20,277 nucleotides of DNA from a virus. Within the stretch, counting starts at the first letter, position 1. Each line of letters starts with the position of its first letter. Below the pieces are notes generated by a model. That model did not search any database, was not told the DNA's origin, and saw only the letters and a program-made list of their open reading frames with translations. The stretch lies in UHGV virus genome UHGV-0069616, one strand, 5' to 3'. A program made the translations under genes and the position numbers. Shown here piece after piece: positions 345-7,845 of this stretch.

Positions 345-2741
345 TTAAGGTTGCGGTTTCATATTTTTAAGATGGCCCCATATAAAATTAGCTAAATTTT
401 GTCCCCCAGCTTCACTTTGGTGTATATGGTCGACGTACAGTTCAGGTGTGTAAGGGTTTTGACCTCCCTCTGCACAATAGTCAACAACATCAATTCCCAT
501 AGTTCTACAAACAGCTATAACTGAATCCTCATATTCCCATGCTGTTTTATTATTTAATGGATACTTATAAGTTCTACCATCATATGTTACTTCACCATAA
601 GGTCTTATTAATTGGTCTGTGACAAACAAAATTCTTGCATTAGAATTTTCACATATATATTTTAAAATATTAAAAGTTAGGCCCGATAGCGTATCTTCAT
701 CTGAGGCTAATACTTCTCCTATAGCAGTATTACCCCAATCATTCGCAAAGCCTTCTACTACTACTAACGCCGCTTCAGCTTTTAGATTCGTTTTAATAGA
801 ATTATATATCTGCTTAGCTGTTCCAGCTGGAATACCATAATTTTCAACACTTAGACCACTTAATGAAGCTAGTGGGTTTACATATTTTCCATAAGAAGTT
901 GACGTAATAGAAGTCCCAAAGAATTGAGCCAATTTTCCACTCCAAGGATTATCCATAGTTCCTGAATCTACAATTAATCCAGTCAACTTAAATGAATCTT
1001 CTGTTGTTATTTCATTAAGTTGTTTATATTTTTTGCCCAACGTAACAATTCTTTGATTATCAGGTATTGAAGCTAAGAACGGAATCGAAATATAATATGC
1101 ATTATTGGGAACATAATATGCACCTAATTGAATGTCCGTTGAACTATTAATTGAAAGTATTGGTTTTCTAGATTCATCAAAATATGTAATCTCAATACCC
1201 CTCGTGGAGTTATTAGCACTATTATAAACTCTTCCCGGTAGTACTGGCAATAAGATTGAATCATAAGTAGGAAAGTCTGTTAATTTTCCCGCTAAATATA
1301 TCTTTCCCCTGTTTATCTCAACATTTTGGCTGTATAAATTTTTATATCCTTCATATTCATCCAAAAACATAGCACGATTAGAAATATCTGCAATATATCT
1401 TTTATATAAACCACTAACTCCACATTTTTCAGGAAAATATTTATAAAAATCCTTATAATTAAGATGAACCTTAACATTTAAATCCGTTTTTCCTAATGCT
1501 ATTTTTATTTTTCTTGTGCCATCAGGTATAGTTGCTACTGCTTGTTCACCGCCGCCTAGAATAGTATCGTTATTAGAATAAAACCATATTTTAGGCGTCA
1601 CAGTATAATCTTTACATGTTATAACATCATTAGTATTATATCTAAAATATGCTATCGAATAAGTATTAAAATTTGAATCAGTAACAACATTGCCGTTAAC
1701 AATATTTTTATTTGTTTCAAATTTCGAACCAGGAAGTAAATTATAAATATTAAATCCCGGGTCTATATTGTTGACAGGAATTCTAAAATCTTCATAAGAA
1801 AAGCCCATATCTGATTTCATATTAATTAAGTAAGGGGCTTTTGAATTATAAATCCACGTCCTATATATAGAATCATACCTGTTATCATAGGGAATTCTAT
1901 AAAATCCGTTTATACCCGGCATAAAATTAGGTTTGGTTACAGACGAAGTAATCGTAATATTTCTTAAATATGTTTTATTTTCATCATATAATGGAATTGA
2001 TAATTGATTGCCCGTTTGAGTAGTTTTCCATATCTCAGAAGTAGAAACATAATCGTCAATAGCTACAGGAATAAATCCAGTGGTATTTAATGTATCAGAT
2101 GAAACTACCACACCTCCACTTCCAATATACCCATTTATAATTGTATCAGGGTCGTCAGGGTTAAATAAATTTTTTGTTAATGAATAGCCCGCTAAATTTT
2201 TTTGATTTATGTTTTCAATGTTTATTGGATTTAGATAAGTTCCCCCTAGTGCCCATGTGGTGCCATTCCAATAATACCAGCCATTTGTTTCTTCAACAAC
2301 ATATATTCTGTTTTTATCTGTTCCAGTTGCAGAATTCAAATCGTTTAAGGTTTTAAAAACTCCTGCTGGTGACGGGGTAACAATACTTTCTATTTTTCCA
2401 TCCTGAATATCAAGTCGCTTATTTAAATCATCTTGTATATCTTTTAAAAGTGTATTATTAATTAGATTACCAAGAGTCCCGTTAGACACTAACAGATTAA
2501 TATAAGCTATTGTTTCATTTTCAACCCCTTCATTCAAAAGGTATTTTGTCCACTCTGTATTAACATTTAACTGCTCAACCACTTCGTTAATTTTCTGAGC
2601 CATTTTACCTTGTTCTTTAGCATACGTTAATTCTTCTCCATATACTGCTGGCAAGCTAATTTGCGCCCAATACATTAACTTTTCTACTGCATGTAGTAAA
2701 CCAACGGGTCTTTCAGGTGTTTTTAAATTATAATCAGCCAT
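345..2741 (-). CDS. Tail appendage / fibre-like protein (phi29 gp12 positional equivalent) with a C-terminal SGNH/GDSL-type hydrolase domain
   Basis: Track ORF 345..2753. The true start is probably the internal ATG (MADYNLKTP), preceded by GTGAGGAaaaag, and the GTG at 2753 is unlikely. It is the last gene of the structural block and is the largest protein. The C-terminus carries SGNH blocks FGTSITS, GFANDW (GxND) and DHIH (DxxH). Confidence 0.6.
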   Translation of the reverse strand: MADYNLKTPERPVGLLHAVEKLMYWAQISLPAVYGEELTYAKEQGKMAQKINEVVEQLNVNTEWTKYLLNEGVENETIAYINLLVSNGTLGNLINNTLLKDIQDDLNKRLDIQDGKIESIVTPSPAGVFKTLNDLNSATGTDKNRIYVVEETNGWYYWNGTTWALGGTYLNPINIENINQKNLAGYSLTKNLFNPDDPDTIINGYIGSGGVVVSSDTLNTTGFIPVAIDDYVSTSEIWKTTQTGNQLSIPLYDENKTYLRNITITSSVTKPNFMPGINGFYRIPYDNRYDSIYRTWIYNSKAPYLINMKSDMGFSYEDFRIPVNNIDPGFNIYNLLPGSKFETNKNIVNGNVVTDSNFNTYSIAYFRYNTNDVITCKDYTVTPKIWFYSNNDTILGGGEQAVATIPDGTRKIKIALGKTDLNVKVHLNYKDFYKYFPEKCGVSGLYKRYIADISNRAMFLDEYEGYKNLYSQNVEINRGKIYLAGKLTDFPTYDSILLPVLPGRVYNSANNSTRGIEITYFDESRKPILSINSSTDIQLGAYYVPNNAYYISIPFLASIPDNQRIVTLGKKYKQLNEITTEDSFKLTGLIVDSGTMDNPWSGKLAQFFGTSITSTSYGKYVNPLASLSGLSVENYGIPAGTAKQIYNSIKTNLKAEAALVVVEGFANDWGNTAIGEVLASDEDTLSGLTFNILKYICENSNARILFVTDQLIRPYGEVTYDGRTYKYPLNNKTAWEYEDSVIAVCRTMGIDVVDYCAEGGQNPYTPELYVDHIHQSEAGGQNLANFIWGHLKNMKPQP

Positions 2742-3078
2742 CTTTTTCCTCACTTTCTAACCTTTCGGCGTTTTCTCTCATGCTTTCTTCAATGAAACCT
2801 TGCACTTCGTCAATTGCCTGCGTTCGTTTTTTCCTCCCTTCTTTCTGCAAGCGTTCAATACAATATTGAAGTTCTTCCGCATGAAGTTTTTCTTCTTCCA
2901 TTATATCAGATATTACTTTATAAATCCAGTCATTTTCTGATAATCTTTCTAAATGTCCACGATAAATAAATATCGCTTCTAGTTCACCCGCAAGCTCAAT
3001 TTCTAGTGCTTGAAGCAACTCCGTTCGGTTGTTTAAGTCTTTTAAATCTCCCGTATAAGGGTTTGCAAAAATAGCCAT
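2734..3078 (-). CDS. Hypothetical protein (114 aa), acidic and helical, possibly an assembly chaperone for the appendage
   Basis: Track ORF. It overlaps both neighbouring genes, and its start ATG follows the RBS-like sequence cccgtataagggtttgcaaaaATG. No recognisable domain. Confidence 0.5.
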   Translation of the reverse strand: MAIFANPYTGDLKDLNNRTELLQALEIELAGELEAIFIYRGHLERLSENDWIYKVISDIMEEEKLHAEELQYCIERLQKEGRKKRTQAIDEVQGFIEESMRENAERLESEEKDG

Positions 3079-3264
3079 TTATTTTACCTTTCTTTCACAT
3101 AAAATACTTTCGCCAATATCACAAGCTTTTGCATAGTATATATTATATTCAGGGTGAGCCTTTAGATAAAGCTGTTTTGCTTTATCTAAAGTAGGTGCCT
3201 GCACTACTGCGTGAATTTTCAAATTTTTCGATGGACTTTTTCCCACAATGTCACAAAATATCAT
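3079..3264 (-). CDS. Hypothetical small protein (about 61 aa from the internal start MIFCDIV)
   Basis: Track ORF 3079..3297. The internal ATG is preceded by GAAGGGAGattgta, and its start overlaps the upstream stop as TAATGA. No homology recognised. Confidence 0.45.
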   Translation of the reverse strand: MIFCDIVGKSPSKNLKIHAVVQAPTLDKAKQLYLKAHPEYNIYYAKACDIGESILCERKVK

Positions 3265-3905
3265 TACAATCTCCCTTCGTAAACAAGCATGAAACAATCT
3301 TTAATTGAACGATCTTCAATAACCATCATATCAATATTAATAAAAGTATTTCGCCAATCTTGCAACATTTCGGAGTAGTTTTTACCTCCATTCGTACCTA
3401 CAATTGTATTGATATAATCTTCGGTATTATCTACTGTTAAATCATTTGAGCTAGTGCTTGTTGCATTTGCGTTATCCCATGAAGCGTCACTTGCATAGGT
3501 ATTGTTTTTAATATCCCCAATGGCTAACATACTTTGTGGAGTGTCGCTTCGTACATCTAAATCTTCTGAAGTTGTTGTTCCGGTTCCTGTTTGACTGGAA
3601 GTCCCTTTATTTTTTCTGTTACTGCTTTCAGTGATGTTTTTATCTTCAAAGGGATTCTTCTCTTTAAAGATATTAATACTTTCATAGAGCTGATTGTAAT
3701 ACGGCATAATTTCGTTCATTGACCGATTAAGCATGAACTTGAATAAACCAGCCGTTTCAAAACCAATTTCACGCATATAATAATGTTGTATTAACTTTTT
3801 ATTTAAAACATTCCTGTAAGTTTCATCAAAGATAGGGTACTCTCTTAGCCCCAAATCAAAACCCGATTCAATGAGGTTATAAAGTTCTATGGTAAACTTA
3901 GCCAT
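3264..3905 (-). CDS. Lower collar-like protein (phi29 gp11 positional equivalent)
   Basis: Track ORF 3264..3944. The start is probably MAKFTIELYNL, preceded by AGGAGGAcaggaaa. It lies directly downstream of the connector gene. The middle is Ser/Thr/Asn-rich. Confidence 0.55.
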   Translation of the reverse strand: MAKFTIELYNLIESGFDLGLREYPIFDETYRNVLNKKLIQHYYMREIGFETAGLFKFMLNRSMNEIMPYYNQLYESINIFKEKNPFEDKNITESSNRKNKGTSSQTGTGTTTSEDLDVRSDTPQSMLAIGDIKNNTYASDASWDNANATSTSSNDLTVDNTEDYINTIVGTNGGKNYSEMLQDWRNTFINIDMMVIEDRSIKDCFMLVYEGRL

Positions 3906-4875
3906 TTTCCTGTCCTCCTGTTTTATTGCTATGATAAATGACATCTGTATCGGATTTTATAACTTCTTCGTCTGCCGCAAAGTCCGGTTCGATTGCTCTG
4001 TTTCTTAATGTTACATATACTTCCTTTTCTAATCTGTCTCCCCATAATCGGTTCATTTTATCGCACGCTTCCTGTCTTGTGATTAACATGGTTTCTGCGC
4101 TCTGATTGACTTGATCAAAATTTGCAATGGCTTCATCAGCCACTAATCTTTCTCGTTTATCTGTATTGGTATTTTTAATTCCTAAAAACGTCATACATTC
4201 ATTCCATAAGTTATGCTTATAGAGCATTAAATCATTTGCAATAAACGGGCCAGCTAACGGCATTGATGTGAAGTTATCAATTCTTAAATCTTTGTCAGCC
4301 ATAATAAGAGGAACATTCCCCTCATATTTCGCCATAATATTTGTCCATGTCAATCGATTCTTTTCATCTGTTAACACGACCATTGGCGTTTTTTGTGTTT
4401 TAATATTAACGTCACACGTTCTTTCAATTTCATAAAAACGTTGAGCGTATAGTCTTATCGTATAAGCAGTAGGGAACCTGAAATAATTGTTTCTTACAAA
4501 TACACTTTCATCATTCCAAACCATTTGATTAAATTGAATCGAATACGCATTATAACGTTCAAAATCTCTGTAAATCGTTGGTCTCCCAGCCGGGTTAACT
4601 TGAAGATTTATAATATCTTCCGTTCCCCCTTCTTTTTTTCTTTCTATAAATATCGCTTGTCCATACCAGAAAAGCGTTTCTTCTAAAAAACGTTCATTAC
4701 AGCTTATAGGCAAGTTGTGCCATTCAAACATGGACATGGCCAGTAAGCTTAACCGCATAAAATAATCTTGATAAGTTGCCCTATTAAAAGCTCCTGTCTC
4801 TGCAAATGGTAAATTTCCAAATCCTAGAGAAGGGTCAAATAATAGGGTACCTTCGTTTGGGCCACCTTTCGGCAT
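3898..4875 (-). CDS. Head-tail connector (portal) protein, phi29 gp10 family
   Basis: Recalled similarity to phi29 p10: [33 protein letters not shown] matches [33 protein letters not shown], and [25 protein letters not shown] matches [25 protein letters not shown]. RBS AAAGGAGaaattaa. Confidence 0.9.
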   Translation of the reverse strand: [325 protein letters not shown]

Positions 4876-4926: not shown

Positions 4927-4978
4927 TCCTGTCACGAACGATTGACACTCAAAATCAAAGATTTTGGTCAATCAGCTT
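4927..4978. promoter_or_regulatory. Dyad-symmetric element copy a (GATTGAC-CAAAATC-AAA-GATTTTG-GTCAATC core) between the M23 gene and the connector gene
   Basis: Read directly. It is about 52 nt and near-identical to 7959..8010. Its palindromic core matches 17132..17169 in inverted orientation. Confidence 0.6.
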
Positions 4979-5516
4979 AACAACCTGTATCCAGCGGTGG
5001 AAGTGGTAAGCACTTGCACGTGTCTTCATTTACAGGTAAATAACCAGCCGGGTCAACGGCTTCTCCGTTCACTCTTATTTCTAAGTGAACATGTCCACCC
5101 TGTGTTTGCCCGGTTTCTCCAATATGACCAATGATATTGCCTTCTTTAACAGCCGCACCTACCGCCGGAGCGGTATCACTCCACGGCCTGTGTGCATACA
5201 TATAGGAATAAGCACCTGCATCAACTGTGATGGAATTTCCCCACCCTCCGTTATCGCCCGCCTGCGTGACAACACCGTCCGCTATTGCTAAAAGTTCCGT
5301 TCCGTTAGGTGCTTGAATATCCCACCCATAATGCATTGTGTAAATGCCTGTTACAGGATTTAATCGACACCCAAACAAATTTGTTGGGTCACACGAATCA
5401 AGCTTGTATTCAGGCAGTGGTAAGGGCCAGCTTGTTACCGGAGAAGGCCCTGAGCCGCTACCTGTTCCCATTAACATTCCAATGAAAAAGCCTTGTGTAA
5501 ATCTAATATAATCCAT
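4977..5516 (-). CDS. Tail-associated M23/LytM endopeptidase (C-terminal half of a phi29 gp13-like cell-wall hydrolase, here a separate ORF)
   Basis: M23 motifs HYGWD (HxxxD) and GHVHLE (HxH). N-terminal hydrophobic/Gly-rich segment GFFIGMLMGTGSGSGPSP. The start overlaps the upstream stop as TAATG. GC content is well above the genome average. Confidence 0.8.
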   Translation of the reverse strand: MDYIRFTQGFFIGMLMGTGSGSGPSPVTSWPLPLPEYKLDSCDPTNLFGCRLNPVTGIYTMHYGWDIQAPNGTELLAIADGVVTQAGDNGGWGNSITVDAGAYSYMYAHRPWSDTAPAVGAAVKEGNIIGHIGETGQTQGGHVHLEIRVNGEAVDPAGYLPVNEDTCKCLPLPPLDTGC

Positions 5517-6034
5517 TAGGCGTATGCGTTATAAGCGTCATGCGCATATTGAAGTCTTGCGGGCATATTCGGTTCTCCGGCTCTCAAATATGCCGCTTCA
5601 AAGTCTATTGTCATTTGATCAATGTCTGTATATAACATCATATTATCAATTCCCCCATACGGCTCAAATCCCCATGCTTCGGTGGTGTGGGCTTCATTCC
5701 AGAAATAATTCATTTGAAAATCAAAATCAGACTTCGGAACGCCGGCGGCTTCTGCTGCGGCTTCAAATGCGACACGTCTGTCTCCTGTCCATTGGAATAT
5801 ACCATATCCATAACCGGGAGATGGGCCTTCTTCTGCGGCCGGATCACATTGAGATTCTTGCATAGCATTTCCAACAACGCCAGCGGCGGCTTGTGCGGTG
5901 AAGCCTTTAGCGATTAACCAGTTCCATACTCTACCCCGGTCGGTATCGTCACCCCCACCACCGCCGCCACCTTTCGCACCTGAAAACATTAGTCCCAAAA
6001 TCATTCCAGTTAAAAAGTCATTATCAAGTTCCAT
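5516..6034 (-). CDS. Phage tail lysozyme-like domain protein (N-terminal half of a gp13-like hydrolase, separate ORF)
   Basis: Motifs typical of the phage tail lysozyme family: GNAMQESQ...GYGIFQWTGDRR. N-terminus GMILGLMFSGAKGGGGGGG. GC-rich. Confidence 0.7.
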   Translation of the reverse strand: MELDNDFLTGMILGLMFSGAKGGGGGGGDDTDRGRVWNWLIAKGFTAQAAAGVVGNAMQESQCDPAAEEGPSPGYGYGIFQWTGDRRVAFEAAAEAAGVPKSDFDFQMNYFWNEAHTTEAWGFEPYGGIDNMMLYTDIDQMTIDFEAAYLRAGEPNMPARLQYAHDAYNAYA

Positions 6035-7845
6035 TAATAATTACCTACATTCCAAGGGTCATGCCATATGGTCACACCATTGTTAAACATTTGTTTAATC
6101 TGGTCAAGGTCATTCATTGGAACCCCTCCAGTAATCATTGCGTCAGTAGTTTTAATAAAATTAAAACCTGCACGCCCTTTAAAGTTTGGAACTTTTACTC
6201 TGTTAATCTCGTAGCCATATCGGTTAAAATAATCAGAAAGAATATTTCCGTGTTGATCATTGATTGTCCAAAGTTCAACCCAAACGCCGTCCTCTCCATC
6301 ATTATAGTCAAAGTCACCATTGTTTGAGTTTCCTGTCACTGTTGGAGGTTGACCTTGTAAGTCTTGTTTTTTAGCGTTTAATCCGCTTACTGTTTTATAA
6401 ACATTTGAAAGCCCTCCAATAGCACTTGAAGCAACCCCTGCAAGACCTCCAACAAGTGCACCCATTGGGCCACCTAACGCAAAACCTAGGCCAGCACTTG
6501 CCGCACCAGTTCCAACGGAAACCGCACCACCAACAATGCTGTTTGTGATGGCAACATCGTTTTGTGTTTTTGAAGTCATGAGATAGGCCCCGTATTGATC
6601 ATTTAGAACTGGAAGTGTATTGTTAGTATTAGAAATAACACTTTTATCTTTTTGATTTCCAGACCCTTGATAATTATCGCACCAATAACGGATTGTTACC
6701 GGGGAACCAAAACCTAGCGTATAGGAAATGTGAGGGTTTGAAACATATTCAGGCTTAAATATCTGAGCTGACCCTTTATGATTAGTAACCTTAAAATAAG
6801 AATAAGGATAATAATTAAGCTTTGGTTCACTGAAATAATCTGAGGTTACACCGCTTGACGCTGACCCAAAACGCAAATCAGACGTTAAGCCAACAACCCG
6901 CCTGCACCCATAACTATCCGTTTGATATTGTAAATCTGTTGGGTCGGCTGGTAGTCGGAATATTTCAACGATTGCGCTTGCGAATCTCGCCGCTCTTTCT
7001 TTTACTAATTCTCTTGTTTTTTGATATTTATCAAGTCCGGGAATATACCCAATGACATCAGCCGCCGCACTGTTACCCACAAACATGGTATTTAATACCT
7101 TTGACATTTCGGCTACTTTGCCATACCAATCTTCGCTCCCAGCTACAGGATTGTTGTACCCCAAAGGGTTATTTAAAATATTTCTCTCTTCGTCCGTGGC
7201 GGGCATTTTTAACATCGTTCTAAAAGATGAATCAAAATAATAATAATGAACACAACTCGGCGTTGAACCGTTTGGGCCATTCAGTGAAGATGGCTCTTGT
7301 TTATCCCAATATTTTGATTTCATAATATCTTCAACTGTTTCCGTCATAACGACATAGTAATCTGGCCCTATTCCTGATCTGTCCCATAAGTGAGCTTGTT
7401 TTCTCAATACATATTCATTTCCGGCATCAAGACCTTCTTCAACTGAAATTGATTCAGTTACATTAGTGTGTTCACGCTCAACATAGCATTTACCAAAATT
7501 AATATTAAATTGCCACGTCTGCCATGCGTCAGTAGTAATCACAATTCTTGAGTTGTTCGGGCTAATATATTCCATTCGGTCAATAAATGCGTAAAACCAT
7601 TTATTTCCAAAGTTTGCATTTTGGTACATTACATAATTGACGCCCCAAAGACTGTCAACGCTTATTGGTAAGTCAATGATATTATCTTTTCTCTGGTATG
7701 TTAAGTTGTTAAAGGTGTGAATTGCCTTCCCTGCAAAATAATCACGTTGTTGGTTTGTGTCTGCAAAATCTAATTGGTTCTCGTAGGTATTGTCAATTGG
7801 AACGGAACAAAGTCTTACTTGTGTCAAATTCTGTACGTCTGCCAT
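6034..7845 (-). CDS. Tail knob (distal tail) protein, phi29 gp9 family
   Basis: Recalled similarity to phi29 p9: QNANFGNKWFYAFI matches QNADYGNKWFYAFV. The C-terminus YGYEINRVKVPNF...GVTIWHDPWNVGNY matches YGYKINRVKKPNL...GITLWHTDNIGNY. A Gly/Ala-rich hydrophobic loop lies near residue 440. Confidence 0.9.
   Translation of the reverse strand: MADVQNLTQVRLCSVPIDNTYENQLDFADTNQQRDYFAGKAIHTFNNLTYQRKDNIIDLPISVDSLWGVNYVMYQNANFGNKWFYAFIDRMEYISPNNSRIVITTDAWQTWQFNINFGKCYVEREHTNVTESISVEEGLDAGNEYVLRKQAHLWDRSGIGPDYYVVMTETVEDIMKSKYWDKQEPSSLNGPNGSTPSCVHYYYFDSSFRTMLKMPATDEERNILNNPLGYNNPVAGSEDWYGKVAEMSKVLNTMFVGNSAAADVIGYIPGLDKYQKTRELVKERAARFASAIVEIFRLPADPTDLQYQTDSYGCRRVVGLTSDLRFGSASSGVTSDYFSEPKLNYYPYSYFKVTNHKGSAQIFKPEYVSNPHISYTLGFGSPVTIRYWCDNYQGSGNQKDKSVISNTNNTLPVLNDQYGAYLMTSKTQNDVAITNSIVGGAVSVGTGAASAGLGFALGGPMGALVGGLAGVASSAIGGLSNVYKTVSGLNAKKQDLQGQPPTVTGNSNNGDFDYNDGEDGVWVELWTINDQHGNILSDYFNRYGYEINRVKVPNFKGRAGFNFIKTTDAMITGGVPMNDLDQIKQMFNNGVTIWHDPWNVGNY

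Follow-up and report, generated by a model that had tools for sequence, protein, structure and literature searches.

How tail-tip lysins are attached to the tails of phi29-like phages is poorly resolved, and phi29 gp13 itself is not visible in the near-atomic map of the virion (PMC6542822). UHGV virus genome UHGV-0069616, the 20,277-nucleotide (nt) stretch of DNA analysed here and referred to as the window, is the whole genome of a phi29-like podophage. It raises this question through two neighbouring genes, one for a lysozyme and the other for an M23 metallopeptidase, whose products begin with similar short leaders. We consider it fairly probable, from sequence comparison, that the products are two separate virion enzymes, a lysozyme of the gp13 N-terminal type and a LytM-type M23 peptidase, each docked on the tail knob (gp9) by an N-terminal glycine-zipper helix followed by a Gly-rich tether. 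The two genes, with lengths in amino acids (aa), and the parts of their products are:

5516..6034, minus strand: stand-alone tail lysozyme, 172 aa (PF18013 Phage_lysozyme2, E-value 9e-32)
5951..6034, minus strand: lysozyme leader, residues 1-28 (sequence pattern)
5975..6016, minus strand: lysozyme glycine-zipper core, FLTGMILGLMFSGA, then Lys and seven Gly (5951..5971)
5522..5932, minus strand: Phage_lysozyme2 catalytic domain, residues 35-171 (PF18013)
4977..5516, minus strand: stand-alone M23 metallopeptidase, 179 aa (PF01551 Peptidase_M23, E-value 3e-23)
5439..5516, minus strand: M23 leader, residues 1-26 (sequence pattern)
5460..5501, minus strand: M23 glycine-zipper core, FTQGFFIGMLMGTG, then a Gly/Ser/Pro linker
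5049..5336, minus strand: M23 catalytic domain, residues 61-156, of the canonical HxxxD...HxH type (PF01551)
4980..5042, minus strand: conserved Cys/Pro-rich C-terminal tail of M23, YLPVNEDTCKCLPLPPLDTGC (clade alignment)

The first-pass annotation of this DNA had remarked that both enzymes start with a similar hydrophobic segment and a Gly-rich linker. The likeness is real: the translations of both open reading frames (ORFs) contain its two N-terminal strings exactly (GMILGLMFSGAKGGGGGGG and GFFIGMLMGTGSGSGPSP), and the arrangement is kept on both proteins in relatives. Aligned on the first small residue, the leaders read aromatic-x-x-[G/A]-x-x-x-G-x-x-x-[G/S], followed by 1-4 residues and a Lys, after which 6-10 residues rich in Gly, or in Gly/Ser/Pro, lead up to the catalytic domain. 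The pattern [FYW]xx[GA]xxxGxxx[GS] was searched for in the first 40 residues of the 2,822 ORFs of 88 phi29-like sequences and was found in 17, of which 14 are every lysozyme and every M23 protein (14/14) of the clade formed by the window, four other assemblies with both genes and a sister group with M23 only. These 14 enzymes have nine distinct leader sequences, and the pattern is present in all nine. Of the three matches outside the clade, two are one and the same 72-aa protein, which comes from a different phi29-like clade and starts in a similar way with 'FGAAIAGGSGGG' (L061 8089..8307 and L062 8108..8326); it begins MSDMSDTMFNAMFGAAIAGGSGGG.., with hydrophobic small-xxx-small spacing and then a Gly-rich stretch, and may be a small tail-tip protein with the same kind of anchor.

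The proteins of the window and of its relative L011 are 85-98% identical, except for the knob (56%), the 802-aa distal protein (70% over 180 aa) and the leaders, which are 42-46% identical (46% for the lysozyme) as against 97-98% for the catalytic domains (98% for the lysozyme). At the DNA level, the leaders are 60-62% identical, compared to 50-70% at the four-fold-degenerate sites of conserved genes. When unconstrained change was simulated to the observed divergence, the leader pattern survived about 1% of the time. Since it is kept in all leaders, the pattern is under selection: the leader residues drift almost neutrally while the pattern itself is held.

A terminal module is also found on the other phi29-like tail hydrolases. 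All 26 distinct complete enzymes outside the clade, phi29 gp13 included, have a flexible linker and a short C-terminal peptide; the linker is rich in Pro, Gly, Asp, Ser or Thr and the peptide is aromatic/hydrophobic-basic (for example ..NKTKDLITLLLSDALHGWKA, ..GKALYPLLLSGALKGWSI, ..PEPDWKPSMPIWFALRKF, ..KQNKMPIWMYGRLL and ..KRKGMPVWMMCRPLF). Of the 2,822 ORFs, 26 have P[IVW]W among their last 20 residues, and 21 of these are tail hydrolases. The clade enzymes are without a C-terminal peptide, the lysozyme ending at its domain boundary and the M23 protein in its Cys/Pro tail, and have a mirror-image module at the N-terminus, first a greasy peptide and then a tether. A terminal tether with a short greasy peptide thus looks like a common attachment device of phi29-like tail hydrolases as judged from their sequences, and we found no mention of their C-terminal linker and peptide in the literature cited here. 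The C-terminal ends are of more than one kind. One common type is K-x-MPIW-[MF]-x-G/A-R-x-F and a second, LLLS[DG]AL.GW, is that of phi29, L016 and L014. The shared linker and peptide occur in L010, L014, L016, L037, L038, L051, L067, L075, L077, L083 and others.

Because the module is C-terminal in the hydrolases outside the clade and mirrored N-terminally within it, a knob-docking tether is the best reading of the leaders. The idea of the first-pass annotation, a docking or anchor peptide that mounts each enzyme independently, therefore stands as the best account of the comparative data. Each enzyme would consist of a hydrophobic glycine-zipper helix (10-16 uncharged residues), a Lys, a flexible Gly-rich tether and a catalytic domain, and its helix would fix it to, or inside, the distal knob separately from the other enzyme. 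The tether would give the catalytic domain reach at the tail tip, where it would cut glycan strands as well as peptide cross-links. The leader helices may double as a plug which comes out once the loops of the knob are released, as for the tail-tip lysin helices of the Staphylococcus phage Andhra, which form a four-helix bundle inserted in the knob, stabilise its internal loops and are proposed to link passage through the wall with the release of DNA (PMC9710869). Such a plug or gating role is one that the helices may have by analogy.

The presumed docking partner is gp9. The window's gp9 has a long Gly/Ala-rich hydrophobic loop (approximately residues 441-490), full of small-xxx-small spacing, which is a plausible packing partner for zipper helices. 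The knob protein is a mosaic among relatives over residues 141-520, a region which includes this loop. Compared to L011, its N-terminal 120 residues are 90-97% identical, the middle 41% and the 441-480 loop 11%, and four-fold sites of the middle are saturated (0.33); the middle is 61-63% identical to that of the L001/L006 group, which is otherwise much more distant than L011. Such a pattern suggests that recombination has occurred within the knob gene. Co-variation of leaders and gp9 middle between the window and L011 was considered as evidence of docking and withdrawn, as the leader divergence is about neutral.

Several points weigh against this docking scheme. We infer the helical nature of the leader from the sequence pattern only, and an AlphaFold2 model of the M23 protein built on a five-sequence clade alignment was not used (predicted local distance difference test score, 43). 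The virion location of both enzymes and their contact with gp9 are likewise deduced, from the gene position next to gp9 and by analogy. Leader similarity does not cleanly track gp9 similarity across relatives, and the apparent co-variation of the two is no diagnostic sign, given that synonymous sites are nearly as diverged as the leaders. Finally, the Cys/Pro-rich C-terminal tail could be the real attachment element for M23.

This last point leads to the alternative that the leaders are loosely constrained spacers, attachment occurring through the catalytic domains or the M23 Cys/Pro tail, or not in any stable form. The leaders do diverge at about the synonymous rate, match no Pfam family (a scan of the leaders alone with E-values up to 10 gave nothing relevant) and, in the clade alignment, are far less conserved than the M23 C-terminal tail. 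We nevertheless regard this as rather unlikely, given that the periodic pattern is present in each distinct leader as against the rare survival expected under neutral drift, that the leader and tether are all that the lysozyme has besides its catalytic domain, and that all other phi29-like tail hydrolases examined have a terminal linker and peptide module. The tail itself belongs to a set of five conserved Cys which flank the M23 domain (residues 42, 50, 167, 169 and 179; DSCDPTNLFGC ... DTCKCLPLPPLDTGC). C42 and C169 are both replaced in the relative P0005 (by E and V). This joint replacement suggests a C42-C169 disulfide, which would fasten the Pro-rich tail at the C-terminus to the segment ahead of the domain.

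Signal-anchor-release domains are Gly-rich, weakly hydrophobic N-terminal segments, and the leaders superficially recall them. The leaders could be signal peptides, signal-anchor-release domains or transmembrane anchors of exported lysis or remodelling enzymes, or else segments that enter the host membrane when the phage infects. Outside phages, the nearest M23 relatives with a shared WPLPxxYxLD pre-domain motif (P0032, P0059 and P0093) have N-terminal transmembrane helices, and a hydrophobic loop of the phi29 knob inserts into membranes (PMC6542822), so that co-insertion is conceivable. Membrane targeting is nonetheless improbable. The uncharged run of the leaders is just 10-16 residues where some 18-20 are needed to cross a membrane, and their best 19-residue Kyte-Doolittle window scores 0.23-1.36, below the usual threshold of 1.6; the genuine anchors of P0032, P0059 and P0093 score 2.4-3.2 on the same measure. 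The L005 lysozyme leader has a Lys and an Asp within the core. Net charge is -3 to +1 before the core and +1 to +4 after it, the wrong topology for export, with positive charge after the core in nine of ten leaders and 0 in the window's own M23 leader. The genes lie inside the structural module and seem to be coupled to gp9, and a canonical holin and endolysin pair is present elsewhere in the genome, so the tail lysozyme and M23 are not needed for lysis. By these measures, the leaders have the character of neither signal peptides, signal-anchor-release domains nor transmembrane anchors.

The base composition of the gene pair invites another explanation, recent horizontal acquisition from a donor of higher guanine plus cytosine (GC) content. 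The first-pass annotation was right that GC is much higher here than in the rest of the genome: 47.0% and 47.2% for the lysozyme and M23 genes versus 35.6% for the whole genome, the capsid-to-knob region being also raised (39-43%). It had offered either horizontal acquisition or Gly/Ala/Pro codon bias as the cause, and it is the second that is correct. Gly, Ala and Pro make up 30-32% of residues in the gene pair versus 2-21% in other genes, and this explains the high GC at first and second codon positions. At third positions, GC is 0.37 and 0.38, within the genome range and equal to that of the capsid gene (0.38). The GC predicted from the amino acids and the genome's synonymous codon usage is 45.8% and 46.4%, nearly that observed (47.4% and 47.6%; z 1.4 and 1.0), so that the excess disappears once amino-acid composition is taken into account. 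An exchange of wall-degrading enzymes is reported to be frequent in this group (PMC11476376) and neither clade enzyme exceeds 28-34% identity to the other phi29-like hydrolases of the sample, but the true compositional outlier is the distal 802-aa gene, and we judge a recent acquisition of the pair very improbable.

That lysozyme and M23 are separate ORFs overlapping as TAATG (5516..6034 and 4977..5516) and are located between gp9 (upstream) and the connector gene gp10 (downstream), as first annotated, is borne out. The order knob, lysozyme, M23 is kept in the four other assemblies, each with its own junction. L091 (SRR17814992, 21.3 kb) has the same leaders and a TGATG overlap between lysozyme and M23; L005/L011 (IMGVR_UViG_3300001919_000161) has a stop, a 9-nt spacer with AAGGTGA and then ATG; L006 (SRR8048117) has an 8-nt spacer with GGAG; and L007 (SRR27853842) has GGAGGG and then ATG, its spacer being 8-26 nt depending on the start codon. 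The spacers thus bear GGAG-like ribosome-binding sites. Two ORFs with differing junctions in five phages exclude a frameshift artefact for practical purposes, and the split is genuine. The proposal that a sequencing or assembly frameshift or a recent mutation has broken a fused gp13-like gene takes some colour from the single polypeptides of phi29 gp13 and its L016 homologue (lysozyme then M23) and from a frame change in the window's DNA polymerase gene which could raise doubts about assembly quality, but it has next to no likelihood: the five assemblies are independent and differ in stop codon or spacer, the lysozyme Pfam match stops just one residue short of the protein's end, the M23 ORF starts with a complete leader of the kind found on the M23 of phages lacking the lysozyme, the lysozyme frame, if read on, comes to a second stop 17 codons after the first, and the frame change of the polymerase gene is shared by three assemblies.

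The sister group (the uncultured human-gut phage MT836189, which is L001, together with L008, L012 and L013) has knob, M23 and connector in this order and no lysozyme gene. Its M23 proteins (187-190 aa, 69-77% identical) resemble that of the window in their leader-tether-M23 layout, with the same kind of N-terminal leader, in their position between knob and connector and in the same Cys/Pro tail. Here leader and M23 seem to work as a unit without the lysozyme. As both subclades have it, the arrangement of leader and M23 is probably ancestral. The tether of the M23-only proteins, KGGGGGGQTDGW (P0005: ..GGTDRW), is closer to the window's lysozyme tether KGGGGGGGDDTDRGRVW than to the two-gene M23 tether ..GPSPVTSW. 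This likeness is compatible with a leader duplication in which an incoming lysozyme captured the 5' end of the M23 gene; deletion of a lysozyme domain and second leader in the M23-only lineage would be compatible as well.

The first annotation had presented the pair as a split gp13, which is too strong. The lysozyme part of the comparison holds: sequence searches gave one solved relative, the N-domain of phi29 gp13 (E-value 5.7e-7, 25% identity over 134 residues), and the Glu of lysozyme GNAMQESQ aligns with that of gp13 GNMQSES. The protein stops one residue past its Pfam domain, without a C-terminal anchor peptide, and has orthologues of 171-179 aa in L005/L011, L006, L007 and L091. The M23 domain is of the canonical LytM type (HYGWD...HVH), with H62-x3-D66, H109 and H142-V-H144 invariant across the clade alignment; its best solved relatives are bacterial (e.g. 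3SLU, E-value 2e-20) and its local match to gp13 covers only 29 residues around HxH. Together with the M23-only relatives and the single-domain hydrolases found elsewhere, this shows that the pair is not the product of a simple fission of phi29 gp13, a description which fits only loosely.

To place these arrangements, we surveyed 80 phi29-like loci of roughly 600 gp9-positive IMG/VR contigs, fetched by gp9 alignment, and labelled their ORFs with iteratively built hidden Markov models. The fused gp13-like protein lies after gp12 in phi29 and between knob and connector in L016 (382 aa), and L014 has a lysozyme alone between knob and connector. Other loci have, upstream of the capsid gene, a single-domain enzyme that is either a lysozyme of 186-202 aa or an M23 protein of 192-213 aa; yet others have the reversed order (M23 then lysozyme, 376-380 aa) or lysozymes joined to other domains. 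Given all these arrangements, single-domain hydrolase genes and a knob-adjacent position are ordinary variation. As to fused and split forms, the clade is entirely split or M23-only, and fused forms occur in other phi29-like phages.

Searches beyond these loci gave few relatives. Word-indexed protein searches returned just 2 and 4 close relatives. In an exhaustive HMMER search of 1.84 billion representatives with an M23 profile, the M23 proteins of the whole clade form a single 50%-identity cluster, the next match being at 8e-41; the top matches are mostly bacterial double-M23 proteins and are uninformative. MT836505 was dropped as a phage match: it is a high-GC contig with housekeeping-type genes around an EnvC-like M23 protein and is presumably bacterial.

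The pair is a variation on a known theme, the virion-associated peptidoglycan hydrolases of phi29-like phages. Gp13 of the Bacillus phage phi29 (PDB 3CSQ, 3CSR; morphogenesis protein 1) has the same Phage_lysozyme2 and M23 activities in the tail module of a phi29-like phage and, like the window pair, a poly-Gly stretch ahead of the M23 domain (SGGGGGG in gp13). It differs in being one 364-aa polypeptide where the window has two genes; in its H(x)7D motif (PMC9662197), where the window M23 has HxxxD (HYGWD); in having a linker and hydrophobic peptide at the C-terminus (..DGDGGDGDDNDNNKTKDLITLLLSDALHGWKA), where the window has a glycine-zipper module at the N-terminus of each enzyme; and in the position of its gene after gp12. 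A gp13-type C-terminal acidic/Gly linker with a short hydrophobic peptide (LLLSDALHGWKA type) is present on neither window enzyme, and M23 is on the same polypeptide as the lysozyme in none of the five phages. Statements concerning the catalytic residues of gp13 are based on alignment and on PMC9662197.

Andhra gp10 and P68 gp11, from which the model of knob plugging is adopted, are also picovirus tail-tip enzymes with two catalytic modules. Andhra gp10 differs in carrying a glycosyl hydrolase and a CHAP domain on one chain, where the window has PF18013 and PF01551 on two, and in that its inserting helices belong to an internal helix-sheet-helix linker domain of a dimer and are not N-terminal glycine zippers. 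No sequence relationship was detected between these two proteins and the window enzymes. In the Clostridium perfringens podophages PhiCP7R and PhiCPV4, a 529-aa lysozyme-peptidase has been found in the virion by mass spectrometry (PMC3362512). This protein (phrog_16615, which matches the window M23 with an E-value of 2.9e-13) also combines the two activities, and the host of its phi29-like phage is an anaerobic Firmicute, but it is a single chain and is attached by a tail domain of about 150 aa resembling the gp9 N-terminus and not by a short peptide.

A wider rule, possible but doubtful at this stage, is a plug-and-play one. Any wall-degrading domain would become a virion enzyme by acquiring a flexible low-complexity tether and a short greasy knob-binding peptide, which would be C-terminal in most clades, as in the ..K-MPIW-MYGR.. 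and ..LLLSxALxGW types, and, in this one, an N-terminal zipper that was duplicated, enzymes being added, lost or swapped singly to give lysozyme and M23 together or only M23; the zippers would pack with the Gly/Ala-rich pore-forming loops of the knob, depart along with these loops and in this way gate DNA release. If true, a transferable anchor and tether would explain how very small phages exchange enzymes in tracking host wall chemistry, and it would be an easy means of engineering enzymes carried by the virion or of fixing cargo to picovirus tails. In practical terms its value is modest, since the hypothesis comes from comparative sequence data on uncultured gut phages.

The genome carrying the pair has perfect inverted terminal repeats of 235 nt each (1-235 and 20043-20277) and all its substantial genes on the minus strand. 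Gene identities were assigned with Pfam and PHROG scans. In order of transcription, the genome encodes the terminal protein, a type-B DNA polymerase, the gp16 packaging ATPase, a holin, an M15 endolysin, the major capsid protein, gp9, lysozyme, M23, gp10, the lower collar, two small ORFs and the 802-aa protein:

10393..10659: holin
9806..10396: M15 endolysin with a peptidoglycan-binding domain
8015..9370: major capsid protein
6034..7845, minus strand: tail knob gp9, 603 aa (PF16838 Caud_tail_N and PF20934 phi29_gp9_C; phrog_2248)
3898..4875, minus strand: connector gp10 (PF05352, E-value 1e-48)
3264..3944: lower collar
345..2753, minus strand: distal protein, 802 aa

The stop of gp9 and the start of the lysozyme gene also overlap as TAATG (6036..6032), a junction missed in the first-pass annotation, which had only that between lysozyme and M23 (5518..5514). 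With these overlaps and no Shine-Dalgarno sequence upstream of the M23 ATG, we infer that gp9, lysozyme and M23 are translationally coupled.

The M23 stop and the connector gene are separated by a gap of 101 nt, unusual in length. Directly after the stop, at 4938..4976, it contains a 39-nt partly palindromic element, TTGACCAAAATCTTTGATTTTGAGTGTCAA, which recurs in the early region at 17132..17170 (85% complementary). There is no canonical terminator in the gap and no T-run after the element, and the predicted fold of the gap barely beats shuffles (z -1.87). The element may be a binding site for a regulator.

The 802-aa distal gene (345..2753, minus strand) has 31.9% GC versus 35.9% expected (z -7.2). 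Its match to L011 is limited to the 180 N-terminal residues, and in the closest relative, L091, it is replaced by a gene for a 704-aa protein with a GDSL-lipase domain. It is probably a swapped receptor-binding or depolymerase cassette. An Rfam scan of the whole genome gave no match to a pRNA family. A weak match to a type III hammerhead ribozyme at 17505..17568 (minus strand; 27.4 bits versus a gathering score of 48.5, E-value 0.04) is probably due to chance.

The type-B DNA polymerase (13493..15266, minus strand) is encoded in two frames, the change occurring near 14562..14573. The first ORF (15266..14529, 245 aa) covers the exonuclease part and ends ..GGFTYLSPRFSQYGSRGRNCS*, and the homology goes on gaplessly in ORF 14557..13493, which lies in the +1 frame and has motif A (..RNMEVGEGIVLDVNSLYP). 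L091 and L093 have the same +1 change at the same CGA-TTT-TCG, with differing downstream bases and a 0-frame stop within 1-2 codons; in the more distant L094-L096, the polymerase is one uninterrupted ORF. The gene is a candidate for either a programmed +1 frameshift (a UUU_U slip with the UCG codon in the A site) or a genuine split.

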